From Corallococcus soli (GTDB lineage Bacteria; Myxococcota; Myxococcia; Myxococcales; Myxococcaceae), in NCBI RefSeq assembly GCF_014930455.1, contig NZ_JAAIYO010000008.1:224367-288366 (forward strand): 64,000 nt of DNA, written 5' to 3'. Positions 2,709 to 17,761 of this stretch are shown here, in pieces. The notes beneath the pieces are model-generated. The model worked only from the letters and a program-made list of their open reading frames with translations, was not told the origin of the DNA and made no database searches. How positions within the stretch are numbered: the stretch's first letter is position 1; each line of letters opens with the position of its first letter. The translations under genes and the position numbers were made by a program.

Positions 2709-5700
2709 TCAGTGCACCCCGCTGACGGTGCGACGGCGGCGCAGGCCGCTCCACGACGCGAGGACCGAGAGGAGCGCCAGCGCGGGGAGCGCGCCATTGC
2801 CGGTGCTCTGGCAGCCGCCTCCGGCGATCTCCACGACGGTGGCCTGGACCCGCACCTGGAACGTGCACTGGGAGGAGTTACCGGCCGCGTCCGTGGCCGT
2901 GACGGTGACCTGCGTGGCCCCCGGCCGGAAGGCGCTGCCCGACGCGGGCGAGGACGTCACCGTCGGCGGCGAGGAGACGGTGTCCGTGGCCGTGGGCTCG
3001 AACGTCACCACCGCGCCGGAGGGCTCGCTCGAGACCACCGACACATCCGCCGGGCAGCTGACGGCGGGCGGCGTGGTGTCCTGCACGATGACGCGGAACG
3101 TGCATGAGACCTGCGAGCTGGGGAGCGTCGCGGTGACGGTCGTGGTGCCCACGGGGAACTGGTCGCCCGAGTCCGCCGAGTAGTCCACCAGCGCGCCGAC
3201 CTGGTCGGGGACCGCGGGCGGATACGTCACGATGGCGCCATTGGCGCCCGTCGCTTCGGCGGTCACGTCCGAGGGGCAGGTGAGGCCCGGGAGCGGCCCG
3301 GCCGTGACGGTGATGGACACGGTGGCCACGTTGCCGTCCTGGGCGCAGTCCCGGGCCCGGAAGGTGAAGCTGTCGTCGCCCACGTAGCCCGGCGTCGGGG
3401 TGTATGTGACGTTGGGCGGCGTACCGCTCAGCGTGCCGTGCTGGGGCGGGGTGACGACGGTGAAGCTCAACACCTGGCCCACATCCGGGTCGGTCCCGGT
3501 GAGGATGATGGCCGCGGGCGTGTCCACCGCCGAGGTGACGGTCTGATCCAGCGCCGTGGGCGCCTGGTTGGCGACCACCTGCACCATGCGTCCGCCGGGA
3601 ATGGCGTTGGCGAAGACGGAGAGCGCGTAGGTGCCCAGCGGCGTGCCGGCGGGAACGGTCACCGTCGCGCGGGTGGACGAGAAGTCGGAGCTGGGGAGCG
3701 TCCAGAGGCGACCGCCCTCCGCGGCCTTCAGGCGCACGAGGGGGAAGTCGGTGGGGGAGTCCAGGTAGCCGCCGCCGCTCGCGCCGGAGATGCCGCGGAA
3801 CAGGAGGCCTTCAAGGACGGTGGGGCAGGCGGCCACCAGGGTCGCCGGGTTGTTCACCACCGGCTTCCACGCGGGCTGGGCGCCGGTGCCGTCGAACAGC
3901 TGGGCGCTGGGCGCGCCCGAACCTCCCGCGACGAGCACGTCCCCCGACGGAAGGGCCACGGCGATGAGGCCTCCCGTCACAGCGGGGGCGTTGGTGGTGC
4001 TCCACGCGCGGGTGGTGGGATCGAAGAGCTCCGCCGAGTCGGCGTAGTCGCCATTGAGGGTCAGCCCGCCCGCGACCAGGACCTTGCCGGAGGGCATCAA
4101 CGAAGCGGTGTGGTGGTACCGCGCCTGCGCGAGCGTCCCGGCCGGGGACCACGCGTTGGTGCCGGGGTCGTAGAGCTCCGCGGACGTGAGCTCCACGAAG
4201 CTCGCGATGCCCGCCACCGCCAGGACCTGCCCGGAAGGCAGCAGCGTCAACGTCAGCTCGTCGCGAGGTTGGGCGAGCGCCGCCGCCGGAGCCCAGGTGT
4301 TGGTCGCGGGATCGTACAGCTCCGCGGAGACAAGGGCTGCACCGCCGGTGTCATGACCGCCCACGACGAGCACCCGACCATCGGTGAGCAACACGGCGGA
4401 ATGCGCGCCGCGCGCGACGGCGAGGGGGGCCGCCGTGGCCCAGGTGTTGGCCGTGGGGTCGTACAACAACGCGGTGTTGAGCACCGTCGCGTTGCGCTGA
4501 CCTCCGACCACGAGCACGCGTCCATCGGGAAGGAGGGTGGCGGTGTGGAGGTGACGCGGAGCGGGGAGCGGGACCACCGGCTCCCAGACGTTGGTGTCGG
4601 GGTTGTAGCGCTCGGCGGAGTCCACCGACGTGCTCACGTTGCGTCCGCCCAGGAGCAGCACCTGACCCGAGGGCAGGAGGGTCGCGGTGGCGCGCTCGCG
4701 GGGAGAGGCGAGGTCGGGCGTGGGGAGCCAGGCGTTGGTCGTCGGGTCATACACCTCCGACACCGCTGACGAGCCGATGTCCGAGCGGCCTCCGGTGACG
4801 AGCACCCGGCCCGTGGGCAGCAGCACTGTTTGGGGATCCGTGCGGGGCGTGCCCATGGCGCCAGCAGGAGACCAGCGGTTGACCGCGGGGTCGTAGAGTT
4901 CGGTCTGCGCGTAGAAGGTGAGGCTGGGGGCACTGGTGTATCCGCCCGTGACCAACACCTTGCCGGTGGGCAGCAGCGTCGCCGTGTGGTTCTCGCGGCC
5001 AATGCTCATCGCGCCTGCGGGGGTCCATGTGCCCGTGCCGGGATCATAGATTTCCGAGACGATCTGCGGGGCCGCGCCGGTGCCGGGGGACCCTCCAGTG
5101 ACCAGGACCCGCCCATCGGGCAGCAGCGTGGCCATGTGGCCCGAGCGCTCGAACGCGAGGCTCGCGGTGGCGGTCCAGGTGTTGGCCGCAGGATCATAGA
5201 GTTCCGAATGGGGGGAGACCCCGCCGCTGGTGAAGCCGCCCGCGAGCAGCACGCGTCCATCCGGCAGCAGGGTGCTGGTGGCGTAGTGCCGGGGGACCAA
5301 GGGGGGGGCCGCGGCGGACCAGGTGCCGGTCGCGGGGTCATAGAGGTCCGCGCCGGGCACTTCGCCTGCCTGATTGAAGCCGCTCACCGCGAGCACCCGC
5401 CCGTCCTTCAGCAGGGTGGCGACGTGCGCGCTCCGGCCCAGGGTCATGGCGCCCGTGGGGAGGAACGTGTTGGTCATGGGGTCGTACAGTTCGGCGGAAG
5501 CGAGCCGGATGCCGCCAGAACCGGTGCCGCCCGCGACCAGCACCTGTCCCGAGTTCAGGAGGGTGAGGGTGGGGAGCCCACGGGTCTGCGCCATGTTGCC
5601 CGTGGCGGACCACGTGCCCGACGCCGGGTCGTAGATGCGTCCCGAGGCGGACCCATCGCTCATGACGAGCACCTGTCCGCTGGGGAGCGGCAAGCCCAGG

Positions 5701-6026
5701 GTGACGTTGCCCTGGATGCCGGAAGCGCCCGCGCCGCGCCAGGCACCGGTCGCCGGATTGAAGAGTTCCGAGGCGGTCACGAAGCCGGTCCGGTTGACCC
5801 CGTTGACGACCAGGAGCTCACCGGAGGGAAGCAGGACGGCGGCATGCTGTGCGCGCTCGCTGGCCATGGGCGCGGTGGCGGCCCAGCCCGGGGGCGAGGC
5901 GAGGGGGGCGCGCGTGGCCCCTTCACCCGGGGGGTGCTCCTTCGTGCCGCAGGCCAGAAGACTCAAGCCCGCGACGAACACCAGGACCCTGCTCCAGACA
6001 GCGTTCTGTGACCGCATCGACGACAC
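2709..6026 (-). CDS. Kelch/galactose-oxidase-like beta-propeller lipoprotein with Ig/HYR-like domains and a C-terminal MYXO-CTERM sorting signal
   Basis: About 14 tandem repeats of the type LLPDGRVLVAGG...YDPATNTW. The N-terminal lipobox is LSLLAC. The extreme C-terminus reads GGGCQSTGNGALPALALLSVLASWSGLRRRR, which is a Cys-Gly motif, then a hydrophobic stretch, then an Arg cluster, and this matches the MYXO-CTERM pattern. It lies 48 bp upstream of the OmpA-family gene on the same strand. Confidence 0.85.
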   Translation of the reverse strand: MSSMRSQNAVWSRVLVFVAGLSLLACGTKEHPPGEGATRAPLASPPGWAATAPMASERAQHAAVLLPSGELLVVNGVNRTGFVTASELFNPATGAWRGAGASGIQGNVTLGLPLPSGQVLVMSDGSASGRIYDPASGTWSATGNMAQTRGLPTLTLLNSGQVLVAGGTGSGGIRLASAELYDPMTNTFLPTGAMTLGRSAHVATLLKDGRVLAVSGFNQAGEVPGADLYDPATGTWSAAAPPLVPRHYATSTLLPDGRVLLAGGFTSGGVSPHSELYDPAANTWTATASLAFERSGHMATLLPDGRVLVTGGSPGTGAAPQIVSEIYDPGTGTWTPAGAMSIGRENHTATLLPTGKVLVTGGYTSAPSLTFYAQTELYDPAVNRWSPAGAMGTPRTDPQTVLLPTGRVLVTGGRSDIGSSAVSEVYDPTTNAWLPTPDLASPRERATATLLPSGQVLLLGGRNVSTSVDSAERYNPDTNVWEPVVPLPAPRHLHTATLLPDGRVLVVGGQRNATVLNTALLYDPTANTWATAAPLAVARGAHSAVLLTDGRVLVVGGHDTGGAALVSAELYDPATNTWAPAAALAQPRDELTLTLLPSGQVLAVAGIASFVELTSAELYDPGTNAWSPAGTLAQARYHHTASLMPSGKVLVAGGLTLNGDYADSAELFDPTTRAWSTTNAPAVTGGLIAVALPSGDVLVAGGSGAPSAQLFDGTGAQPAWKPVVNNPATLVAACPTVLEGLLFRGISGASGGGYLDSPTDFPLVRLKAAEGGRLWTLPSSDFSSTRATVTVPAGTPLGTYALSVFANAIPGGRMVQVVANQAPTALDQTVTSAVDTPAAIILTGTDPDVGQVLSFTVVTPPQHGTLSGTPPNVTYTPTPGYVGDDSFTFRARDCAQDGNVATVSITVTAGPLPGLTCPSDVTAEATGANGAIVTYPPAVPDQVGALVDYSADSGDQFPVGTTTVTATLPSSQVSCTFRVIVQDTTPPAVSCPADVSVVSSEPSGAVVTFEPTATDTVSSPPTVTSSPASGSAFRPGATQVTVTATDAAGNSSQCTFQVRVQATVVEIAGGGCQSTGNGALPALALLSVLASWSGLRRRRTVSGVH

Positions 6027-6289: not shown

Positions 6290-7387
6290 TCACGGCTCGC
6301 GGAGCGCGCGGCGACGCCAGAACTCCTGCTCAGGCCAGCGGCGCTCCAGCGCGTACCACGCCGCCAGGTTGCGTCGGTACGCGGCGTCGATGTCGGCCAG
6401 GGTCCCGGCGTAGTCGCTCGTCGCGGAGGGGTCGCCGGAGAGCGCCCGGTCCGTGGCCTCCGCGGCGGCAAGGCCGGTGAACAGGGCGTTGAACAGGCCC
6501 TGGGAGGAGAGGGGATCAAAGCTCAGCGCCGCGTCCCCGGCCGCAAGCCAACCGTCGCCCACGGGGGACACCAGGACCGAACCGTGGGCGGTGATGACGC
6601 CGGGTGTGCCCGTGTCCTCGAACCGCGTGTCGGAGAGCTGCGCACCCAGGGTGGGGGAGCGCGCCGCGTGGCTCCGCAATCCGGCCGCGGTGCGCAAGGC
6701 CTCCGCCGCGGGGAGGTCCGCGTCGGTGTGCCAGGCCAGCACCCGTCGGCCGTCCGGCAGGGGCGCGGTGTACCACCAGCCGTCGGGCGCGGACTCCGTG
6801 TACGTCAGGCCGCCCCCGGGGCCGCCCGCCGTCCTGGTGCCGTGAAGCCAACCACAGATCAACCGGTCCCGGGCCCGCCTGTCGGCGCCGAAGGGCTTGA
6901 GCAATCCCGACGTCCGCCCGCCGGCATCGATGATCCACCGCGTGGCCACGTCCAGCACCCGCCCGCGGTGCTCCAAGCGCAGGCACCAGCCATCCCCCGT
7001 GCGCTCCAGCCCCACGGGCGAGGCTGGCGCGAGCAACGCGGCGCCCCGAGCCACGGCCGTGGCTCGCAGTCGCTCCTCGAACCGGCGACGGTCCAGGTGC
7101 CAGCCCGGTCCATCCAGGTTGGCGAGCGCGTCCTGCTCACCCAGCGCCTCCGTCCCCCAGCGGCTGCGCGTGACGTGACAGGGGCTGTGCGCGTCCGCGA
7201 GGAAGTCCGCCCACAACCCCATGTCGCTCAAGAGGCGCCGGGCGGCCGGGGCCAGCGACTCCCCGATGCGGTCGGTGGGCTCCGGCCTGCGGTCCACCAG
7301 CAACACCCGCCGGAGCGGCGCGAGGTTCAGCGCGGCGGTGGCACCGGCGGGACCGGCGCCCACGATGACGACGTCGGCGGGCAGCAT
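6290..7387 (-). CDS. FAD-dependent oxidoreductase (LodB/GoxB-like flavoprotein)
   Basis: N-terminal Rossmann motif VVIVGAGPAGATAAL. It is 365 aa and starts 8 bp after the stop of the upstream 982-aa LodA-like gene on the same strand, which mirrors the lodAB/goxAB gene order. Confidence 0.8.
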   Translation of the reverse strand: MLPADVVIVGAGPAGATAALNLAPLRRVLLVDRRPEPTDRIGESLAPAARRLLSDMGLWADFLADAHSPCHVTRSRWGTEALGEQDALANLDGPGWHLDRRRFEERLRATAVARGAALLAPASPVGLERTGDGWCLRLEHRGRVLDVATRWIIDAGGRTSGLLKPFGADRRARDRLICGWLHGTRTAGGPGGGLTYTESAPDGWWYTAPLPDGRRVLAWHTDADLPAAEALRTAAGLRSHAARSPTLGAQLSDTRFEDTGTPGVITAHGSVLVSPVGDGWLAAGDAALSFDPLSSQGLFNALFTGLAAAEATDRALSGDPSATSDYAGTLADIDAAYRRNLAAWYALERRWPEQEFWRRRALREP

Positions 7388-7394
7388 CCGAGCC

Positions 7395-10343
7395 TCAGCT
7401 GCGCAGGCCGCCCGGGAAGCGGCGCACCTTCTCGATGCCGCTCACGTCCACCTTCGCGGCGGAGGCCGCCTCGCCGTGGTGCGAACCCACCGCGCTGCCT
7501 GTCGCGGTCCCGAGCAACCTGCTCCGGTCGTCGGTGGGGATGACGTCCGGGATGGGCTTGTGCTGGTCCTCCACTTCGATGACCGCCGGGAAGGCGTCGG
7601 TGTCCGAGGGGCCCTTCCTCGCCTCCACGACGCCCAGGTGATCGAAGTGCTGGACCATGTTGTTGATCTGGTCGGTGTAGCTCGTCGCACCCAGCGGGTT
7701 GATCCAGGCGGCGCGGTTGGCGAAGGCGGCGAGGCGCTCCGCCAGCGGCTTCTGCGCGTCCATGACGATCTTGTAGTTCTGCTCCGTCAGGACCTCGTTG
7801 GGGACCCGCGCCGGCCAGAAGGACGGGACGTAGGGGTCATAGCGCTTGTCGTAACCAGAGCGGCAACTGGCCGTGTCCGTCTGCCAGGGGACGGCCATCC
7901 ACCGCGTGAGGCCCCCGGGGGGCTGGCCATACAGGGGACCGTTGGAGATGGTGACGCTGTCGGACGTGAGCACCTCGCCCAGGCTCGGCTCCTTCCAGCC
8001 AGGCCGCTGGTGGGCCAGCCGGAAGGGCTGCATGTACATCGTGGCCTGACGCATGGGCCAGGTCAGCTCGCAGCCGGGATGGAACGCGTCCGCCAGGCAG
8101 AACTCCAGCGCCGCGCGGGTGAGCATGTCCCCCTGCTGCTCCAGCGGCACGTCGGCGAGCCTGGCCGGCGGCTTGCGGTTCGGATCATGGTCGGCGACGA
8201 ACTCGCCCATCGCCCACAGCTGGAGCATGACCAACTGGGTGTCCGTCAGCGTCGCGTACTGCCGGGGCGTCGGCGCGGGCGGGATGTTCATGGCGTCGCC
8301 GTACAGCCAGGGCCACGGCGTGGGCGACCACGAATCCCTGGCGAAGTACCGGAACTGGTTCGCCACCACGCGCCGGTACTCGCGCGCCGCCGGGCTGGGA
8401 TCCCCCAGCCGCGCCAGCACCTTCGGATCCGTGAAGTCGAAGATCCCCTTCCAGCCGAAGCCCGCCGCGAAGCCCGCGTTGACCCATTGCAGGCCCGCCA
8501 TTCGCTGGAAGAGGGGCAGGATGTCGTGGGTGAAGGACGGCCGGGCCGGCAGGGGCAGCGTCGCCGCGCGGACGGCGACGTCGCGCATCAGGTCCCACAT
8601 CGTGCGGACCGACTTGCGCTGGGGCCCGTAGTTCGGGGGCGCCACGACGACCCAGGCGGGGACGACCTCCAGCGGCTTTCCGTCCAGCACCACCTCGGCG
8701 GTCACCGGGCCATCCGACACGTCGTCGTGCCAGCCCTCGTTGTTCGCGAAGGTGATGGCATACGTGCCGTCGTACGAGCGGGAGACGCCGTGTCCGCCCA
8801 GCACCACCAGCCGTCCGCTCTCGTCGGTGCGGATGTCCCCCAGGTGGACGTCCAGGTCCATGAAGGTGCCATCAAAGCGCTTGGGCCGGGCGTTCACCCC
8901 CTGCACGGACTGCGCGGCGGGCGTGATGGCCAGCCGCGAGCGGTCCTCCACGGTCGCGTTGCGCAGGGTGGTGGGAGGGGCCGACGACGCCTCGGGGATG
9001 TCGAGCGCCAGTTGGAAGCCGTACCAGGCGGCCTTGGTGTTCGCCAACTGCACGGACCAGCGCACCTTCGCGCCGGACTTCGGCACCGACAGCTCCCGGA
9101 GGATGCGCCCTTGGGCGTTGACGCCATAGATGCGGAAGCGCGCCGCCTGTCGCTTCAGCCGTCCTTGCGCGTCCCGGTAGAAGCCCTTGTCCTCGGCGGG
9201 AGGCTCCGTGACCTCCGGGCCGATGAAGTACCCCTCCGGGCTGCTGCCGACGCGAGCGACGCCGATGGACGGATAGATGACCGCCTTCACGATGCTGTCA
9301 TCCCGTGGCTCGGGCCGGACGCCGGTCCGGGGGGCGCCGGGCCGGGGTTCGGGGGCGTCCTTCAGGGGCTGGCCGTTGGCGCGGTGCCGGGCCGCGGCGC
9401 CCGCGGCGTAGACCGCCTTGCGCACCACCGCGATGGAGGATGCGTCGCAGGGGGCGTTCTCCGGAGGGGTCCGCCAGATGTTGAAGGACAGGCCCTGGCC
9501 GTAGTCGGCCTGCCCGCGCTCACCGATGTCCTGGCGGGGCAGCACCAGCGTGGCGATCTGCACGAACGGGCTCTGCTTCTCCGACCAGTCGTCCATGGCC
9601 CGGTCCAGCGGCATGGTGGACGGGTGGGTGCGGCGCTGGATCATGAACCGGAAGCGACAGCCGTCCCGCGAGAGCCGGTGGGCCATGTCCGTGGCCAGGT
9701 AGCCGGGGGCGTCATCCGGCACGTCCTGGGGCGCGGTCTCCGGCTCCAGTCTGTATTTGACCACCTCCTTGCCCAGCTTGAACGGGAGGATGGCCCAATA
9801 GGTGCTGGTGAGGACGCTGCCCCGCGGCGCCGTCATCGCGTCCAGCACGGCCCGGGTGTCGGGGTGCTGTTTGAGATAGCCGGGATAGTCCTTGAGGACG
9901 ACGCCCGCATAGGTGAACTCACACATCGCCTTCGCGTCCTGCACGAAGAAGCGCGGGAAGTTCTGCAGGATGAGGTCCGCGGTGGTGCCCGGCTCGCCCA
10001 GCCCGTTCGCGCCAGGGACTCCGAACAGCTTGATGCCCACGCCCAGCGTGCTGCCCAGGTCCGGATCGGTGGGGGAGGTGTCGCTGGAGAACCGCACCCA
10101 GGCTTCCATCCGGTCCTGGGCGAAGATGCCCACCCGCAGCTTGCGGTCCACGCCCGGAAGGACTTCGAAGTGGCCATGCGCCACGCCGTGCAGCTTGCGG
10201 AACACTGCGCGCTCGGCGGGTGTCTGGCCCAGTTGGATGCGCTTCTCCTGGGTCATGCGCACGAACATCTCGATGAGGCGCTCGGTGGGCTGTCCTTCGC
10301 AGTCGAAGCAGTCGGGAGGAGTGCCCTTCTCTTGTTTGGACAT
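7395..10343 (-). CDS. Fusion protein: N-terminal catalase-related heme domain plus C-terminal LodA/GoxA-like quinoprotein amino-acid oxidase domain
   Basis: Residues 1 to about 340 carry catalase-core-like motifs: FRKLHGVAHGHFEV (distal His region), FPRFFVQD (the PIFFIRD equivalent) and a downstream VRKAVY candidate proximal Tyr. The remaining roughly 640 aa start with IYPSIGVARVGSSPEGYFIGPE, which I recall as the N-terminal signature of the LodA family. The genomic context (a LodB-like flavoprotein directly downstream) supports this. Confidence 0.7.
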   Translation of the reverse strand: MSKQEKGTPPDCFDCEGQPTERLIEMFVRMTQEKRIQLGQTPAERAVFRKLHGVAHGHFEVLPGVDRKLRVGIFAQDRMEAWVRFSSDTSPTDPDLGSTLGVGIKLFGVPGANGLGEPGTTADLILQNFPRFFVQDAKAMCEFTYAGVVLKDYPGYLKQHPDTRAVLDAMTAPRGSVLTSTYWAILPFKLGKEVVKYRLEPETAPQDVPDDAPGYLATDMAHRLSRDGCRFRFMIQRRTHPSTMPLDRAMDDWSEKQSPFVQIATLVLPRQDIGERGQADYGQGLSFNIWRTPPENAPCDASSIAVVRKAVYAAGAAARHRANGQPLKDAPEPRPGAPRTGVRPEPRDDSIVKAVIYPSIGVARVGSSPEGYFIGPEVTEPPAEDKGFYRDAQGRLKRQAARFRIYGVNAQGRILRELSVPKSGAKVRWSVQLANTKAAWYGFQLALDIPEASSAPPTTLRNATVEDRSRLAITPAAQSVQGVNARPKRFDGTFMDLDVHLGDIRTDESGRLVVLGGHGVSRSYDGTYAITFANNEGWHDDVSDGPVTAEVVLDGKPLEVVPAWVVVAPPNYGPQRKSVRTMWDLMRDVAVRAATLPLPARPSFTHDILPLFQRMAGLQWVNAGFAAGFGWKGIFDFTDPKVLARLGDPSPAAREYRRVVANQFRYFARDSWSPTPWPWLYGDAMNIPPAPTPRQYATLTDTQLVMLQLWAMGEFVADHDPNRKPPARLADVPLEQQGDMLTRAALEFCLADAFHPGCELTWPMRQATMYMQPFRLAHQRPGWKEPSLGEVLTSDSVTISNGPLYGQPPGGLTRWMAVPWQTDTASCRSGYDKRYDPYVPSFWPARVPNEVLTEQNYKIVMDAQKPLAERLAAFANRAAWINPLGATSYTDQINNMVQHFDHLGVVEARKGPSDTDAFPAVIEVEDQHKPIPDVIPTDDRSRLLGTATGSAVGSHHGEAASAAKVDVSGIEKVRRFPGGLRS

Positions 10344-10483
10344 GGTGGCCTCGGAGCATGCGATGGATTGACGGCGCGTGAATAATGGCAGACGTCATGG
10401 TGCGCGGCAATCCGGACGGCCTCCGTGGGAAGAGGCCCAGGGGCGCCGGACTGGGGGACGCGCTGATGACGGCCACGTCCCTT

Positions 10484-11455
10484 TCAGTCGAGGAAGCGGC
10501 GCCACCAGCGGCGGGCTTCTGCTTCGGTGAACCCATCCCAGGTGTTGAAGGGGCGGAAGGGTTGGAGCCAGGGCTCCAGGACCCGGGCGAGTTCACGGTA
10601 TGCCAACAGCGGTTCATCCAGCTTCGTGTCTCCGGCCAGCGGGGCCGCCCCGAGGCTGACCACCGCGCGTCCCCCGGTGAGCTCCTGGACCGTGGTGCCT
10701 GGGGCGCTCAGGCGCGAACGAAGCGTCTGGGCACCGCCCACGGCTTCGAGCACCGAGGGGCCCAGGAAGTTCAGCCAGTGCACGCCGTCGATCTGGTCGC
10801 CCAGGTCCAAGGTGGCGCCTGTGTTCGGTACGTCCCAACCTGGATGCCGGATCAGCTCATCCTTGATGATGGGGAGGATTCTTGAGCGACCCCGCGTAAA
10901 GGAGAGCGACAGTCCGGCGTGGCCCGTCGTGGAGGGAAGAAGCTCCGCGAGCGCCAAGGCGAGTTCTCGTAGCTTGTCGGGGCCGTGGTCCGTGAGGAAG
11001 CGAATCGGGACACTGACGCTCAGTTCGCTGAGTTCGGGCGATGTCTCACGCCAGGGTAGCCGGGCCCAGTAACTGAATTCATAACCAGAGGGATCAAACG
11101 TGTCCCCGGTCAAGCGTACTCCGGTATCAAACCCTCGCTTGGTCAAGATCCAAAGCCAGGTGGAGTCCTCGTCCATGTCGTCGAGAAATCCAAAACGCGG
11201 CGTTTCCAGGTGCTTGCGGATGCTTGCCCAGGCGGGGGCTGTGAGCGGGAATGGATCTTCGTTGATGTCGGGGTTGTGGCCCGTCGTCAGTTTGTTGCCA
11301 TCATCTCCAATCTTCTGGAGGTAGATGTCGAGCAATTGCTGCATGAGCGGGGCCAAGGCCCTGTGGTCATGTGGCAGGTAGAAGATGACTCGTACCACAA
11401 GCTGCACCCGTGGGAGCTGCTCGGCGAAGTGCTCCGATGAGGAGTATCTAGTCAC
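10484..11455 (-). CDS. Hypothetical cytoplasmic protein, candidate immunity protein
   Basis: 323 aa with no signal peptide. Its start codon (11455) overlaps the stop (11448) of the upstream lipoprotein gene by 8 nt, which is toxin-immunity style coupling. Confidence 0.55.
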   Translation of the reverse strand: MTRYSSSEHFAEQLPRVQLVVRVIFYLPHDHRALAPLMQQLLDIYLQKIGDDGNKLTTGHNPDINEDPFPLTAPAWASIRKHLETPRFGFLDDMDEDSTWLWILTKRGFDTGVRLTGDTFDPSGYEFSYWARLPWRETSPELSELSVSVPIRFLTDHGPDKLRELALALAELLPSTTGHAGLSLSFTRGRSRILPIIKDELIRHPGWDVPNTGATLDLGDQIDGVHWLNFLGPSVLEAVGGAQTLRSRLSAPGTTVQELTGGRAVVSLGAAPLAGDTKLDEPLLAYRELARVLEPWLQPFRPFNTWDGFTEAEARRWWRRFLD

Positions 11456-12212
11456 GAATGACTCCCAGTTGAGGTGTGATGATCGCGGGATTGCACTCTC
11501 CTCCGATTTGCTTGTAGCGACCCATCTGTCGTTGCGTGGCGGAGTTGTCGCGCGGATTCTCCTTGCCGGCCTTGGTGCATGGAAACTTGAAGTCGTAGAT
11601 GCACTGGACCTGTCCTGGCTGGCCTGAGGCGTGAATCGCGAAATCCGGCTTCATGGATCCCGCCCGGCGGTCCGTTAATGCGTATTCGCCCGGTTTGCCG
11701 TTGGGGCCATAGCGTGGCTCAATGGAGATGTTGTCGGGAAAGAGTCGGAGGATTTCCTGCTGGGCGCACATGAAAGCGCGCTCGTGTTTCATCCTGCCCA
11801 GCTCCGTCTTGCGGGTGATGGGGGCGCCCTCTTTGTCCTTGCCGATGAGCCGATTGCATTCGGCATCATCCGGGATGACTCCCTTTCCGTACTCCCGCTC
11901 GTTGATCTTGAAATGCGCCTCCTTCGCGCATTCCACCAGCAGGTACTCAATCCGTGCCACGTCCGCGGCCTCCAGGACGCGCAGGGTGGCATGGGCAGTG
12001 GTCGCCGCCCTCGCGGCACGCCCTGCCCACGGCAGGATGGCGTCATTGCCCGTCTGGGTGTAGCAGGCGGGATTGCGAAGACAGATGTTCGTCGCGGAGT
12101 CCGCGGTCTGGCCGAAGTGGCCCGGCCCCGAAGCGCAGGACAGGCAGAGCAGGGCGGCCAGCCCACCCAGCCACCGGCTCAAGCCCTCAGTCATCCTCTT
12201 CGTCCATGTCAT
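11448..12212 (-). CDS. Small lipoprotein, candidate polymorphic (SitA-like) toxin
   Basis: The signal peptide and lipobox are MTWTKRMTEGLSRWLGGLAALLCLSCASG, with alternative ATGs at 12212 and 12194 and the sequence GACGAAGAGG just before 12194. The C-terminal 120 aa or so are charged and Cys-rich (KPDFAIH...YDFKF), consistent with a nuclease-like domain but unassigned. The N-terminal extension in the ORF track (up to 12374) was rejected. Confidence 0.55.
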   Translation of the reverse strand: MTWTKRMTEGLSRWLGGLAALLCLSCASGPGHFGQTADSATNICLRNPACYTQTGNDAILPWAGRAARAATTAHATLRVLEAADVARIEYLLVECAKEAHFKINEREYGKGVIPDDAECNRLIGKDKEGAPITRKTELGRMKHERAFMCAQQEILRLFPDNISIEPRYGPNGKPGEYALTDRRAGSMKPDFAIHASGQPGQVQCIYDFKFPCTKAGKENPRDNSATQRQMGRYKQIGGECNPAIITPQLGVIRD

Positions 12213-13176
12213 GCGCGGCCGCATTGAAGAGGCCGAACCCTCCGGCCTCCTCCCGCGTGATTCCCGCCCGCCGCAGCGCAGGCGAATCCCGCGTCTGTCC
12301 CACCGCCATCCAGCGCGGCGCGGCCAGCAGCACCCCATGCTTCGGCAGTGCCGGCAGCAGGTGCTCCAGATCATCGAGGATGAACTCCGCGTGCCCCACG
12401 CCCTCGGGCTCGCGCAGTCCCTCCGGGGAATGCCATGGGCCTCCGTCCAGATGGCCGAACGGAAAGCTCTCCGTCCCGCTCGCGCCCCCGTACCCGCCCT
12501 CCAACAACATCCGGACCCGCTCCGCGCTCCCCGTCACCGTGGGAAGACAGACCTGTGTCAACCAGGTCCACGTCGCCGTTCCCTGCTCCACGGGCCAGTC
12601 CAGCTCCACCGTGTCGTCTGCCTTCTCCAGCAGCGCGTCGATGTACGCACACGCCGCCCGGGGCCCCAGCACGCCGCCTCGCCGCGTCTCCGCCGCCGCC
12701 GCCTCCCACAGCTCCTCGCGGTAGTAGTGCGCGAAGTAGAAGCCGGGCTCCACCAGCTCCGCCTTCGCGCCGCGCGGAAGCTTCGCCAGCACCAGGCCGC
12801 TCGACAGGTACGCCGGCCCCGTGGCCCGGGGATGGAACTGGCTGAAGGCGGCACGGAACGCACGCACCGCCACGCCCGCCTCCTCCGTGGTCTCCATCCC
12901 GTCCGGGCACCCCGCCCTCAGGTGGAAGTCATCGAAGCGCAGGAACACGTCCACCCCGATGCCCATCGCGTTCTGGCACAGCGACTCCAGGCACGCCGCC
13001 AGCGGATGCCCCGCGCCCACCCGCTCCGGGGCCTCCCACGCCGCCGCCGTGATGGCCCGGGTCCGCGCGTCCACCCGGAGCGCCAGTCGCACCCGGCCCC
13101 CCTCACACGGTGCCTCCCCGTGGCGCACGTCCTCGCCCTCGAGCCGGCCCCGGTGTTCCTGCGCTGGAATCGTCAT
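12187..13176 (-). CDS. Hypothetical protein (conserved-looking, unknown function)
   Basis: The likely start is MTIPAQEHRG at 13176; the ORF track extends to 13251. Its 3' end overlaps the start of the downstream lipoprotein gene. It diverges from the MnmC-like methyltransferase gene. Confidence 0.5.
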   Translation of the reverse strand: MTIPAQEHRGRLEGEDVRHGEAPCEGGRVRLALRVDARTRAITAAAWEAPERVGAGHPLAACLESLCQNAMGIGVDVFLRFDDFHLRAGCPDGMETTEEAGVAVRAFRAAFSQFHPRATGPAYLSSGLVLAKLPRGAKAELVEPGFYFAHYYREELWEAAAAETRRGGVLGPRAACAYIDALLEKADDTVELDWPVEQGTATWTWLTQVCLPTVTGSAERVRMLLEGGYGGASGTESFPFGHLDGGPWHSPEGLREPEGVGHAEFILDDLEHLLPALPKHGVLLAAPRWMAVGQTRDSPALRRAGITREEAGGFGLFNAAAHDMDEEDD

Positions 13177-13232: not shown

Positions 13233-14084
13233 ATGTCCGAGTCCGACCCATCGAACCCGCGCGACGGCGACTTCGAGCTCGTCACCCTGCGCAACGGCCA
13301 CCGCGCCGTGCGCCACCTGGGACACGGTGAGGTCATGCACCCCGCCGTGGGCCCGTGGCAGGAGGCCCTGGGCCTCTACGTGGACCAGCCCCGCCTCGCG
13401 GACCGCCTGCGCCAGCCCGGCCCGCCGCTCGTCATCCTCGACGTGGGCCTGGGCGCCGCCACCAACGCCGTCGCCGCGCTCACCCGCGCCCGCGAGCTGG
13501 GGGCCGAACGCGCAAGGGAGCTGCACGTCGTCAGCCTGGAGGTGGACCTGGCCCCGCTGCGCCTCGCGCTCGCGGACGCCGAGGGCTTCCCCTTCCTCCA
13601 GCCCTTCCGCGCCGCCGCGGAGAGCCTCATGCGCGACGGCTCCTGGGAGGAGCCCGGCCTCCGGTGGACCCTCAAGCTGGGCGACGCCGTGCCCTTCCTG
13701 GACGGCGAGCTGCCCCTGGCCGACCTCGTCTTCTTCGACCCGTTCTCCCCCGCGTCCAACCCGGACATGTGGACCGAGTCCGTGCTGGCCCGGGTGCGCC
13801 GGCACTGCCGCGAGGACGGGGAGGGGGCCCTGCTGATGACCTACAGCGCGGCCACGCCCACCCGCGTCACCCTGCTGCTCGCCGGCTTCTTCGTGGGCGC
13901 CGGGGCGTCCACCGGCACGAAGGGGGAGACCACCGTGGCCTCGACCCGCTTCGAATCCCTCGCCGCACCCCTGGGGACCCGGTGGAGGGAGCGCTGGGAG
14001 CGCTCGTCCTCCCGGGCCCCGCACGGGGCCGAACTCACGCCTGAGGTCGAGCGTCGCCTGCGGACCCATCCTCAGTGGCGCTGA
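13233..14084 (+). CDS. MnmC-like SAM-dependent methyltransferase (DUF752 / Methyltransf_30 family)
   Basis: 283 aa. It has the layout I associate with the methyltransferase module of MnmC: ...LVILDVGLGAATN... then DLVFFDPFSPASNPDMWT (the D-x-F-x-P-x-x-N-P-x-x-W motif). Confidence 0.65.
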   Translation: MSESDPSNPRDGDFELVTLRNGHRAVRHLGHGEVMHPAVGPWQEALGLYVDQPRLADRLRQPGPPLVILDVGLGAATNAVAALTRARELGAERARELHVVSLEVDLAPLRLALADAEGFPFLQPFRAAAESLMRDGSWEEPGLRWTLKLGDAVPFLDGELPLADLVFFDPFSPASNPDMWTESVLARVRRHCREDGEGALLMTYSAATPTRVTLLLAGFFVGAGASTGTKGETTVASTRFESLAAPLGTRWRERWERSSSRAPHGAELTPEVERRLRTHPQWR

Positions 14085-14652
14085 GCGCCCCCTCGGACGG
14101 CGCTTCACTCCAGCGCAGGTGGAACGTCGCGGCCGTGCCGTCGAACTCCTCCGGCAGCGCCACCACCCGCCAGCCGCCGCACAGCGCCACCGCGCGCGCC
14201 AGCAGCCCCGCCGCGAACGTCGGCTGATCCGCCAGCACGTCGTTCATCCACAGCTCCAGCGAAGTCGCGCTGCGCTCCACGATTTTGACTTCACTGAAGT
14301 TGTTGCCGGCGCGAAAGCCGAGGTCCGCGCGCAGCAGCATCCGCCGGGGGCCGGCGAGCTTGCCCACGCCCAGCAGCGCGCGACCAAAGAAGGTGCCGAA
14401 GTAGGCGTCCATGAAGCGCTCGCCCAGCGAGTAGTACGCCGCTTCCGCGGGCACGCCGCCGTAGACGTGGCCGGCCGCGATGCGCAGGAACTCGCGCCAC
14501 TGCTCCAGGGTGTAGGTGCGCTCCAGCTTCGCGTCGAGGTCCAGCCCCGCCCGCTTCAGGTGCTCCACGCACGCGGGCGTCAGGCGGTTCTCCAGCGCTC
14601 GAACGAACAACGCGTCGACGGTCTGGGCGAAGACAAGCTTCTCTGGATTCAT
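14035..14652 (-). CDS. Hypothetical protein, myxobacterial paralogous family (DUF2378/TIGR02265-like)
   Basis: Start MNPEKLVFAQTVDALFVRALE. I recall this kind of N-terminus from the Myxococcus-restricted paralog family. Its 3' end overlaps the convergent MnmC-like gene by about 50 bp. Confidence 0.5.
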   Translation of the reverse strand: MNPEKLVFAQTVDALFVRALENRLTPACVEHLKRAGLDLDAKLERTYTLEQWREFLRIAAGHVYGGVPAEAAYYSLGERFMDAYFGTFFGRALLGVGKLAGPRRMLLRADLGFRAGNNFSEVKIVERSATSLELWMNDVLADQPTFAAGLLARAVALCGGWRVVALPEEFDGTAATFHLRWSEAPSEGALSATEDGSAGDARPQA

Positions 14653-14995
14653 GCGGCGCACCCTACACGAAGCCCCCCATGCGATGCTCCCCCACCTGTG
14701 CACTTGCGTTCAGTGTCGCCGCCTCCGAGTGTCAGGAAGCCAGCGTGCGCCGCACCCGTCGTGAACTCCGGGTGTTTCGTGACCCCGGCTGCGCGGCACC
14801 CACGGCGCGCGCCACGAGTCCTCGCAGCCACGGGTGGGCCGGGTCTCCGTCGAACCGTTCGCGCCAGGCTGGATGAAGGAGGGGACGGAGGGGACGGGCG
14901 ATGCGCCGGCCACCTCCCTCCAACTGGTGCACGATGGGGGCCGACCGGAGATTGAACCGGAAGGTACGGCCACCCCACCGCGAGAAGAGCGCACC

Positions 14996-17761
14996 ATGGA
15001 CGAGCAGCGCCCCCCCAGGCCCCCGGCACGGACGGATCCCTCCATCGATCTGCTCCACCAGCGCACGCGCCAGCCACTGGAGGTCCTCTTCTCGCCCCGC
15101 AGCGTCGCGGTGGTGGGGGCGAGCGAGCGGGCCGGCAGCGTGGGCCGCACCGTGCTGTGGAACCTCATCAGCAGCCCTTTTGGCGGCACCGTCTACCCCG
15201 TCAACCCGCAGCGCCCCAACGTGCTCGGCATCAAGGCGTGGCCGTCCCTGCGCGCCCTGCCGGAGCCGGTGGACCTGGCCGTCATCGTCACGCCCGCGAA
15301 GTCCGTGCCGGCCATCATCCGCGAGTGCGCGGAGGTCGGCGTCCGGGGCGCCATCATCATCTCCGCGGGCTTCAAGGAGACGGGCCCTGAGGGCGTGAAG
15401 CTGGAGCAGGAGGTGCTGCGCATCGCGCAGGCCGGGAACGTGCGCATCATCGGGCCCAACTGCCTGGGCGTGATGCGGCCCACCACCGGCTTCAACGCCA
15501 CGTTCGCCAAGGGCATGGCCCGGCCCGGCAACGTGGCCTTCATCAGCCAGTCCGGCGCGCTGCTCACCGCCATCCTCGACTGGAGCCTGCGCGAGTCCGT
15601 GGGCTTCAGCGCCTTCGTGTCCGTGGGCTCCATGCTGGACGTGGGGTGGGGCGACCTCATCGACTTCCTGGCCGATGATCCGATGACGCGCTCCATCCTG
15701 CTGTACATGGAGTCCATCGGCGACGCGCGCGCCTTCCTGTCCGCCGCGCGCGAGGTGGCCCTCACCAAGCCCATCATCGTCATCAAGGCCGGCCGCACCG
15801 CGCAGGCCGCGCAGGCCGCCGCGTCCCACACCGGCACGCTCGCCGGCAGCGACGAGGTGCTGAGCGCCGCCTTCCGCCGCGCGGGCGTGCTGCGCGTGGA
15901 CTCCATCGAGGACCTGTTCCACATGGCGGAGGTGCTCGCCCGTCAGCCCCGGCCCTCCGGACGCAGGCTCACGCTGCTCACCAACGCGGGCGGCCCCGCG
16001 GTGCTCGCCACGGACGCGCTGGTCGCGGGTGGGGGAGAGCTGGCCACGCTGTCCGACGACACGCGCGCCCAGTTGGACGCGTTCCTGCCCGCGCCGTGGA
16101 GCCACGGCAACCCGGTGGACATCCTGGGGGACGCGGACGGGGAGCGCTACGCGAAGGCCCTGGAGGTGACGGGCGCGGATCCCCACAGCGACGGCCTGCT
16201 CGTCATCCTCACGCCGCAGGACATGACGGAGCCCACGAAGACGGCCGACCGCCTCAAGGGCTACGCGAAGCTGCCCGGCAAGCCCGTGCTCGCGAGCTGG
16301 ATGGGCGGCTCCGAGGTCGCCGCCGGCGAGCGCATCCTCAACGACGCGGGCATCCCGACCTTCGGCTACCCGGACACGGCGGCCCGCGTCTTCAACTACA
16401 TGTGGCGCTACTCGGACAACATCGCGGGGCTCTATGAAACCCCCACGCTGGCGGAGGAGCCCACCGGCGGGGGCCGCGACGTGGCGCGGGCCCTGGTGGA
16501 GGAAGCCCGCGCCGCCGGCCGCGGCATCCTGTCCGAATACGAATCCAAGCGCCTGCTGGCCGCCTACGGCATCCCCACCGTGGAGACGTGGCTCGCGACC
16601 ACCGAGGACGGCGCCGTGGAGAAGGCCCGCGCGCTGGGCTTCCCCGTGGTGCTCAAGCTGCACTCGCTCACGGTGACGCACAAGACGGACGTGGGCGGTG
16701 TGCGCCTGGACCTGCGGGACGAGGACAGCGTGCGTCAGGCCTTCCGCGCCATCCGCGACGCGCTGGCGGAGCGGGGGCTGGCGGACGCGTTCGACGGCGT
16801 CACCGTGCAGCCCATGGTGAAGCTGGACGGCTACGAGCTCATCCTGGGCAGCAGCCTGGACGCGCAGTTCGGGCCGGTGCTGCTCTTCGGCGCGGGGGGC
16901 ACGCTGGTGGAGGTGTTCCAGGACCGGGCCCTGGGCCTGCCGCCCCTCAACACCACGCTGGCGCGGCGGATGATGGAGCGCACGCGCATCCACCACGCGC
17001 TGAAGGGCGTGCGCGGCCGGGCCCCCGTGGACCAGGGCGCGCTGGAGCGCCTGCTGGTGCGCTTCAGCCAACTGGTGGTGGAGCAGCCCTTCATCCGCGA
17101 GCTGGACATCAACCCGCTGCTCGTCTCCGCCGAGCGCATCATCGCCCTGGACGCCCGCGTGGTGCTGCACCCGGCGGACGCCACGGCCGCGTCGCTGCCC
17201 CGGCTGGCCATTGAACCGTATCCGCACCAGTACGCGCGGTTCTTCACGCTGAAGAACGGCGAGCAGCTCATGCTGCGCCCCATCCGCCCGGAGGACGAGC
17301 CCGCGATGACGCGCTTCCACCAGGCGCTGTCCGAACAGACGGTGTTCCTGCGCTACGCGGGCCTGATGAAGCTGAGCCAGCGCGTGGCCCATGAGCGGCT
17401 GGCGCGCATCTGCTTCAACGACTACGCGCGGGAGATGGCGCTCGTCGCGGAGCGGCGCTCCGCGGACCTGAAGGAGGGAGGGGAGATCCTGGCGGTGGGC
17501 CGGCTCACGCGCCTGAGGGGCACGAAGGACGCGGAGTTCGCCATCACCGTCAGCGACGTCGCGCAGCGCCAGGGCCTGGGGGAGGAGCTGCTCCGGCGGC
17601 TGGTGGACGTCGGTCGGGACTGGGGCCTGCAGCGGATCGTCGCGGACATCCTCACGCGCAACCGCGGCATGCAGGCCGTCAGCCGGAAGCTGGGCTTCAG
17701 CATCCTCGAGAACGAGGAGCTGGCCCCGGACATGGTCAAGGCCGTGAAGGTGATTGGCTGA
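14996..17761 (+). CDS. Pat-like bifunctional protein: NDP-forming acyl-CoA synthetase (alpha and beta domains) fused to a C-terminal GNAT acetyltransferase
   Basis: CoA-binding domain ([18 protein letters not shown]), succinyl-CoA-synthetase-like flavodoxin domain, ATP-grasp domain ([10 protein letters not shown]...[11 protein letters not shown]) and a C-terminal GNAT domain ([13 protein letters not shown]). The start at ATG 14996 (MDEQRPP) was chosen over the ORF-track start at 14834. Confidence 0.85.

Follow-up and report, generated by a model that had tools for sequence, protein, structure and literature searches.

Within a 64,000-nucleotide stretch of the Corallococcus soli genome (contig NZ_JAAIYO010000008.1, positions 224,367 to 288,366; hereafter the window), a two-gene unit on the minus strand encodes a 982-residue protein, in which an N-terminal catalase-related heme domain is fused to a C-terminal oxidase domain of the LodA/GoxA family, and a 365-residue flavoprotein of the LodB/GoxB type. 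All three components are identifiable at the family level, retain conserved catalytic residues and are obligately linked in the loci analyzed. We consider it on balance probable that the unit is a self-contained operon for a cysteine tryptophylquinone (CTQ) amine or amino acid oxidase, in which the heme domain removes the H2O2 in situ.

Results

Gene layout and coding evidence

Both open reading frames begin with ATG and lie where the initial annotation had placed them, with every motif quoted there found at its expected position: RKLHGVAHGHFEV at residue 49, FPRFFVQD at residue 129, VRKAVY at residue 307 and IYPSIGVARVGSSPEGYFIGPE at residue 356 of the 982-residue protein, and GAGPAG at residue 10 of the flavoprotein. 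The spacer between the oxidase stop codon and the flavoprotein ATG, on the other hand, had been given as eight base pairs and is actually 7 nucleotides long (GGCTCGG). In this window of ~72% G+C, the frame of the fusion gene has a G+C fraction of 0.93 at third codon positions (GC3) against 0.49 at second positions (GC2), a bias that marks it as genuine coding sequence together with Pfam matches reaching 6e-83 and the existence of an identical record: the 982-residue GenBank hypothetical protein G4177_25345 of Corallococcus sp. ZKHCc1 1396 (P0121), which matches at 100% identity and is named “Catalase” in UniRef. A chance reading frame or a wrong-strand assignment is excluded by the Pfam matches, the homolog search and the codon bias, and the 1054-residue plus-strand frame at 7221..10385 is a high-GC shadow of the gene. 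No Tat or Sec signal was found in the fusion protein, and a scan of the minus strand for σ70 promoters and terminators returned nothing usable.

The C-terminal domain and its CTQ site

By its sequence, the protein's C-terminal portion is a member of the LodA/GoxA family of CTQ oxidases, in agreement with the initial annotation. Pfam LodA_N (PF17990) is covered over its whole profile with 278 bits (cut-off 26.3; E = 6.2e-83) and LodA_C (PF18417) scores 144.5 bits (cut-off 25; E = 2.5e-42), while the sole relatives in the PDB are PlGoxA (6byw and related entries, E = 1.7e-44) and Marinomonas mediterranea LodA (3weu, 2.3e-34). The NCBIfam equivalog models give 441.5 for GoxA against a cut-off of 750 and 177.3 for LodA against 600. 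Since both cut-offs are missed and alignment shows that the ADTGFVGYHAE loop carrying PlGoxA Tyr766 and His767 is absent, the domain is best described as a family member that is closer to GoxA than to LodA and an ortholog of neither. A weak phmmer envelope relating query residues 2-120 to LodA residues 547-653 (E = 0.7) was disregarded as unreliable.

The segment PWQTD823TASC827 aligns with PWQSD678AASC of PlGoxA, in which the aspartate of the cofactor site, Asp678, is strictly conserved (PMC7876137). Across our oxidase-domain alignments (A2 and A3), His755, Asp823, Cys827, Trp843 and Trp880 are invariant. In LodA, we take the conserved aspartate to be Asp512, four residues before the cysteine and thus at the same spacing as Asp823 and Cys827. 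The two LodA residues that make up CTQ are Cys516 and Trp581 (PMC10851380; PMC4417212). Here both Trp843 (+16 from Cys827) and Trp880 (+53) are invariant in fused homologs, in split ones, where the heme and LodA parts are separate genes, and in GoxA-like sequences; the spacing elsewhere is +65 in LodA (C516/W581) and about +73 in GoxA-like proteins (NRxxWLxTADTGFVGYH). We take Trp880 rather than Trp843 as the CTQ tryptophan because of its invariance and its spacing, which is the closer of the two to those of LodA and the GoxA-like proteins, and the cofactor would accordingly be formed from Cys827 and Trp880. Phe532 aligns with Phe316 of PlGoxA, which belongs to the active site and takes part in cooperativity, and His755 with PlGoxA His583; the roles of PlGoxA His583 and His767 are reportedly described in work by Mamounis and colleagues from 2020.

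The flavoprotein

The 365-residue protein scores highest with the CTQ maturases in NCBIfam (GoxB, 252.6 bits; LodB, 199.6; QhpG, 149), far above geranylgeranyl (GG) reductases (68) and the halogenase CmlS (66). This bears out its earlier description as LodB-like and rules out the competing assignments to the halogenases or GG-reductases. Its N-terminal Pfam matches, to FAD_binding_3 and Trp_halogenase, include the GAGPAG motif. Because all maturase scores fall below the equivalog cut-offs (400), it can be placed at the level of the family only, which fits a maturase dedicated to its own partner, and it is presumably a CTQ maturase of the LodB/GoxB type.

The N-terminal heme domain

The first ~325 residues, as judged from family profile and predicted structure, form a catalase-related “mini-catalase” that has the catalase core fold and is not a canonical catalase. 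A phmmer search of the PDB with this domain alone returned noise only, and Pfam Catalase (PF00199) matches the first 349 residues with 13.4 bits, below its cut-off of 25 (E = 0.041). Of the profile matches anticipated by the initial annotation, LodA_N and LodA_C are thus above threshold and PF00199 is not; on the single sequence the catalase match is too weak, and the assignment therefore rests on the family profile and the predicted structure. A few homologs do carry a precomputed pfam00199 match. The profile built from an alignment of 40 diverse heme-domain homologs (A1) has as its best PDB match the 33-kDa catalase-related protein MAP_2744c (3e4w/3e4y, E = 3.1e-16), followed by fungal, bacterial and mammalian catalases (1e-6 to 1e-3) and coral AOS (1.6e-4). 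An AlphaFold (AF2) model of the domain from the same alignment reaches a pLDDT of 92.8 and a pTM of 0.90, and a Foldseek search of the PDB with it again places 3e4y on top (E = 8.9e-16, target TM-score 0.76), ahead of ~180 catalase chains; matches to catalases have E about 1e-13 and TM-scores of about 0.65-0.69. As the domain measures only ~325 residues, the N-terminal arm, the wrapping loop and the C-terminal (helical) domain of catalases are missing.

The residues expected to hold the heme are well preserved. Among the 40 homologs, His52, Arg84, Ser86, Phe132 and Arg319 are invariant and Phe133, Arg308 and Tyr312 nearly so (≥90%). His52 sits at the start of the first core strand of the model and is presumably in register with catalase His75; W-V-R84-F-S86 corresponds to catalase VRFS and Q127-N128-x-P-x-F132-F133-V to catalase N-N-T-P-x-F-F-I, and the proximal Arg/Tyr motif of 3e4w and the catalases finds its aligned counterpart in R308-x3-Y312-x6-R319. 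The catalase-like heme domain proposed by the initial annotation is hence upheld by the fold, from profile as well as from the AF2 and Foldseek results, and by the retained heme-ligand residues, and we infer that it is a Tyr-ligated heme protein.

The y4iL-like mini-catalase domain is also found at the C terminus of larger proteins (P0301-P0399, exhaustive search), its partners being DyP-type peroxidases (P0319, P0361, P0309, P0371), an animal-type heme peroxidase (P0395) and RoxA-like cytochromes c (P0350, P0399); the wider family comprises 6066 cluster representatives at E ≤ 1e-3.

The C-terminal tail

Residues 926-982 are variable, with a pLDDT below 50 in the full-length model, up to a conserved terminal motif, [VI]D[LIV]xxI[ED][KL][VF]xRFPxGL, found in 19 of 20 fused homologs (A2). 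The C termini of LodA proteins from split operons differ, yet also have an Arg/Phe pair near the end. The motif could be a docking peptide for the heme domain or for the maturase.

Distribution and genetic linkage

The full-length homolog search retrieved at least 120 fused homologs of about 950-1075 residues, 63-88% identical over their whole length, from Myxococcota, Planctomycetota, Alpha-, Beta- and Gammaproteobacteria, Deinococcota, Gemmatimonadota and other groups; among 8000 candidates scored, 1399 proteins have E ≤ 1e-10. A scan of one genome per GTDB species yielded 352 loci with a heme-domain relative, the best 80 of which were analyzed. The LodA part directly follows the heme domain in all 80, with the two parts in one uninterrupted reading frame in 76 and frame breaks in the other 4, and a LodB homolog lies directly downstream in 75 of the 75 contigs that reach far enough. 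Five fused loci were examined gene by gene, and no neighbor beyond lodB recurs among them.

Homolog queries with protein fragments return only proteins of similar length (the 349-residue query missed all of the ~980-residue fused homologs), so that counts of “stand-alone” versus “fused” proteins drawn from them are biased. Stand-alone heme-domain homologs of ~340 residues, 39-62% identical to the heme domain of the 982-residue protein, do exist, and each of the six inspected has lodA and lodB as separate genes downstream of it. The stand-alone gene directly adjoins lodA, with a gap of ~20 nucleotides, in Paraflavitalea, Chitinophaga and a Pseudomonas; in one metagenome contig a fused gene appears to have been fragmented, and in Ensifer and one other metagenome contig two genes stand between the mini-catalase gene and lodA. 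Alignment of three split operons (Paraflavitalea, Pseudomonas and Ensifer) shows every heme-site and CTQ-site residue kept, and the interdomain linker of the fusion coincides with the gene boundary in split homologs. The heme domain and the oxidase therefore stay partners in fused and in split form alike, and such a fused-or-adjacent pattern is a classic sign of obligate functional partnership. We did not find this fused-versus-adjacent pattern in the 2015 survey of LodA-like proteins (PMC4417212).

Several observations from the same loci are recorded here in their own right. The intervening genes in Ensifer sp. ENS06 (L009 7107-8962) and in the metagenome contig (L092 7042-8888) encode a metalloprotease-like protein of ~410 residues with a HELAH (HExxH) motif and a 202-residue protein, neither of which has a Pfam match. 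Truncated or frame-interrupted copies of the fused gene occur in Corallococcus sp. BB11-1 (P0001), in Skermanella aerolata (P0021) and in P0006, L018, L066, L077, L083 and L007, among them a 389-residue protein 98% identical to the N terminus of the 982-residue protein; they may be pseudogenes or assembly errors. In Pseudomonas morbosilactucae (L002 3043-6824) a trio of glutamine-synthetase-like, solute-binding and DAO genes of polyamine type (polyamine/gamma-glutamyl) adjoins the operon, in Deinococcus radiotolerans (L005 12223-16038) two malate-synthase-like genes (glyoxylate users) do so, and a Bradyrhizobium fused locus has an amino acid permease as neighbor. The Pseudomonas and Deinococcus contexts give hints of possible substrates. 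As each of these neighborhoods was seen once, they were not used for substrate assignment.

Proposed mechanism and alternative explanations

In the mechanism that we propose, the LodB/GoxB-type flavoprotein would complete CTQ from Cys827 and Trp880 inside the oxidase domain, which would then use O2 and water to oxidize an amino acid or a primary amine, yielding NH3, H2O2 and either an aldehyde or a keto acid. The heme protein, tethered or co-expressed, would destroy the H2O2 at its source by dismutation or through a peroxidase cycle, and a cytoplasmic oxidase devoid of a signal could in this way work without harm to the cell, to its cofactor or to a product sensitive to peroxide. We hypothesize, accordingly, a self-detoxifying or peroxide-channeling function. 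Removal of H2O2 fits the absence of a signal peptide, the three-way linkage, the conserved heme ligands and the known pairing of oxidases with catalases. Such pairing is well known to protect both cells and peroxide-labile keto acids.

A number of points weigh against this reading. The Pfam Catalase score is sub-threshold, and residues of the catalase main channel are not conserved, Val116 being replaced by Asp88 and Asp128 by Ser98/Thr99, so that genuine catalase activity cannot be assumed; judged by its spacing to Pro-x-Phe-Phe, the position of the distal Asn148 moreover seems to correspond to Gln127, with Asn128 adjoining (for Val116, Asp128 and Asn148 we use what we take to be the standard catalase numbering). 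MAP_2744c, the closest solved relative, was reportedly found by Pakhomova and co-workers in 2009 to be a poor catalase and a better peroxidase of organic hydroperoxides. The missing PlGoxA Tyr766/His767 loop means that the chemistry of the oxidase may also differ from that of GoxA, and the full-length AlphaFold model, built from 20 close homologs, has a pLDDT of 59 and a pTM of 0.40 and is unusable for tracing a channel or an interface between the domains. Coral cAOS has identical heme residues and yet is no scavenger of H2O2 (PMC5617202), the phylogenetic group of LodA-like proteins that holds these fusions had no characterized member in the 2015 survey (PMC4417212), and no biochemical work on the fusion turned up in literature searches.

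Several of these points bear equally on the leading alternative, an oxidase-peroxygenase cascade in which the heme domain would turn the CTQ-made H2O2 on the product of the oxidase (aldehyde, imine or keto acid) or on a second substrate. The nearest solved relatives transform peroxides rather than being efficient catalases, with 3e4w on top and coral AOS matched, and the replaced channel residues point the same way. Fusions of the mini-catalase to DyP, to an animal-type heme peroxidase and to RoxA-like cytochromes suggest a peroxide chemistry beyond scavenging, and conservation across phyla is very high (63-75% over 980 residues). On this reading the fusion would be a biosynthetic or catabolic enzyme working in two steps, by analogy with coral AOS-LOX. 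We nevertheless regard such a cascade as unlikely: in the five fused loci no pathway genes are conserved downstream that would point to a special product, there is no obvious candidate for a second substrate, and the distal His is preceded by Leu, which shares its hydrophobic character with the Val of catalases, and not by Thr. A Thr at this position is said by the Brash laboratory to mark enzymes acting on fatty acid hydroperoxides. More doubtful still is the proposal that the heme domain carries out a second catalytic step, possibly through an internal channel, with H2O2 as the oxidant and with a product that neither domain makes alone, be the two fused or split; the conserved VDxSGIEKVRRFPGGL tail could be part of such domain coupling.

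Lower in likelihood than the cascade comes a role for the heme domain in serving the cofactor, either in a MauG-like biogenesis of CTQ or as acceptor of electrons from reduced CTQ, which would make the enzyme a dehydrogenase. Heme proteins do serve other tryptophylquinone systems, MauG in the biogenesis of tryptophan tryptophylquinone and the quinohemoprotein amine dehydrogenase QHNDH in electron transfer, and the heme partner is strictly linked to lodA-lodB. Tyrosinate-ligated catalase heme, however, with its very low reduction potential, accepts electrons poorly. Against a biogenetic role, a LodB-type maturase is always present and suffices in LodA and GoxA, which have no heme partner, and many LodA-family proteins lack any catalase domain (PMC4417212); we therefore think this role quite improbable. 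Last in order, and highly improbable, is a degenerate catalase fold without heme that serves as a structural, oligomerization or regulatory module. The sub-threshold Pfam Catalase match and the loss of catalase-specific channel residues would agree with it, but His52, Arg84, Ser86, Arg308, Tyr312 and Arg319 are invariant or nearly so in fused and split homologs from many phyla, and such retention of the residues that bind and hold the heme is not to be expected of a noncatalytic remnant.

Feature map and other genes in the window

Table 1. Positions in the window of the two genes, their domains and selected codons, with the basis of each assignment
Feature	Position	Strand	Basis
Fusion gene, 982 aa: catalase-related heme domain + LodA/GoxA-family CTQ oxidase	7395..10343	-	Open reading frame, 100% identical record, GC3 0.93
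Heme (mini-catalase) domain, aa 1-325	9369..10343	-	Family profile A1 vs. PDB, AF2 model, Foldseek
Putative distal His52 codon	10188-10190	-	Invariance
Arg84/Ser86 codons	10086-10094	-	Invariance
Gln127-Asn128, at presumed distal-Asn position	9960-9965	-	Profile alignment
Arg308 codon	9420-9422	-	Near-invariance
Putative proximal ligand Tyr312 codon	9408-9410	-	Near-invariance, proximal-motif alignment
Pro-rich interdomain linker, aa 326-350 (PLKDAPEPRPGAPRTGVRPEPRDD...)	9294..9368	-	Low pLDDT at end of N-domain model; gene boundary in split homologs
LodA_N domain, aa 357-567	8643..9275	-	PF17990; alignment to PlGoxA 283-454
Phe532 codon, in LodA_N	8748-8750	-	Aligns with PlGoxA Phe316
LodA_C domain, aa 691-843	7815..8273	-	PF18417; motif alignment to PlGoxA
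His755 codon, in LodA_C	8079-8081	-	Invariant
Asp823 codon, in LodA_C	7875-7877	-	Invariant
Putative CTQ cysteine Cys827 codon, in LodA_C	7863-7865	-	Invariant
Putative CTQ tryptophan Trp880 codon	7704..7706	-	Invariance and spacing
Variable tail and conserved C-terminal motif (VDVSGIEKVRRFPGGL), aa 926-982	7398..7568	-	pLDDT <50; motif alignment
lodB/goxB-like FAD flavoprotein, 365 aa, presumed CTQ maturase	6290..7387	-	NCBIfam scores, Pfam, locus context

Directly upstream of the fused gene, two minus-strand genes occupy 10484-12374. One encodes a 323-residue protein that matches TsiV (E = 1e-42), a type VI immunity protein for VRR-NUC toxins. It overlaps by 8 nucleotides the end of the other, a 308-residue open reading frame without a Pfam match, and the two, which lie in a patch of lower G+C (0.63 vs. 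about 0.72), look like an acquired toxin-immunity pair with the product of the upstream 308-residue frame as candidate toxin. Downstream of the operon, and likewise on the minus strand, lie genes for a 1105-residue protein that combines a hydrophobic leader at its N terminus with numerous Kelch repeats, one Big_9 domain and two HYR domains (2709-6026) and for a 611-residue OmpA-family protein with thrombospondin type 3 repeats (870-2705), neither with an evident link to the oxidase. Farther away, the plus-strand gene at 14834-17761 encodes a 975-residue protein in which CoA-binding, succinyl-CoA-ligase-like and ATP-grasp modules precede a C-terminal GNAT domain, the architecture of Pat-type protein acetyltransferases; close by, the minus strand carries a myxobacterial DUF2378 gene (14035-14703) and the plus strand a Methyltransf_30 gene (13233-14084).

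Discussion

To our knowledge, oxidase activity among tryptophylquinone enzymes is confined to the quinoproteins of the LodA family. In the characterized members the released H2O2 kills competitors and drives biofilm dispersal. A large and highly conserved branch of the family has a built-in or adjacent heme domain, which suggests a different purpose, namely the intracellular catabolism of amines or amino acids, or biosynthesis, without peroxide release; the branch could also supply biocatalysts that oxidize amines without external catalase. The fusion architecture itself is already known, widespread and annotated, and the Corallococcus gene is an ordinary member of it, so that the locus presented here is one more example rather than a discovery. 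What our analysis adds is that all six stand-alone heme-domain genes inspected lie shortly upstream of separate lodA-lodB genes.

Comparison with known systems

The architecture was thought unusual in the initial annotation, a view that does not hold, as it is common in genomes, was tabulated for 21 proteins in 2015 and was noted again in 2026. The earlier of these sources (Campillo-Brocal et al. 2015, BMC Genomics 16:231, Table 3) lists 21 LodA-like proteins of 963-1072 residues with an N-terminal pfam00199/cd08152 match and places all of them in LodA phylogenetic group III (PMC4417212). A 2026 preprint describes this architecture for Acaryochloris and for a Rickettsiales endosymbiont, independently proposing immediate H2O2 detoxification while leaving the function open. 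Group III proteins from Azospirillum lipoferum, Massilia timonae and Sphingomonas sp. S17 share the architecture, the size (963-1072 vs. 982 residues) and a lodB-like gene downstream. We tie the 982-residue protein to this group because Azospirillum and Massilia homologs are part of our locus set, where they are 57-58% identical to it in the heme domain and 65-69% in the LodA part; there is no structural difference, and it stands as a myxobacterial (Corallococcus) member outside the 2015 list.

With the glycine oxidase GoxA (from Marinomonas mediterranea, and PlGoxA from Pseudoalteromonas luteoviolacea, 6byw) and the lysine epsilon-oxidase LodA (3weu, 2ymw), the protein shares the LodA_N/LodA_C folds, the Asp-x3-Cys arrangement, the CTQ tryptophan and an adjacent maturase, and with PlGoxA in particular the Phe (Phe532/Phe316) and His (His755/His583) typical of GoxA. 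It differs in the added 350-residue heme domain, in the lack of a Tat/Sec signal and of the PlGoxA Tyr766/His767 loop, and in scores below both equivalog cut-offs. For LodA and GoxA, the released H2O2 is the biologically relevant, antimicrobial product.

The best match to the heme domain, by profile as well as by structure, is MAP_2744c of M. avium subsp. paratuberculosis (3e4w, 3e4y) with the cd08152 y4iL-like family; cd08152 matches have indeed been reported for the fused proteins (PMC4417212). The two share a core of ~300-340 residues without arm, wrapping loop or C-terminal domain, and the proximal R-x3-Y-x6-R motif. Their identity, however, is only about 19-20%, a Ser-Ser in MAP_2744c replaces Gln127-Asn128, and MAP_2744c is a stand-alone protein with no link to a CTQ oxidase.

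Finally, the coral allene oxide synthase-lipoxygenase fusion AOS-LOX (1u5u, 3dy5) and the catalase-related hydroperoxide lyase fusions likewise combine an N-terminal catalase-related heme domain with an O2-using C-terminal enzyme that generates the peroxide acted on by the heme domain. In their case the peroxide is a fatty acid hydroperoxide, the partner is a lipoxygenase and the proteins are eukaryotic and distant (profile E = 1.6e-4). Coral AOS-LOX nonetheless provides a precedent for a catalase-related domain fused to the producer of its own peroxide substrate (PMC5617202).

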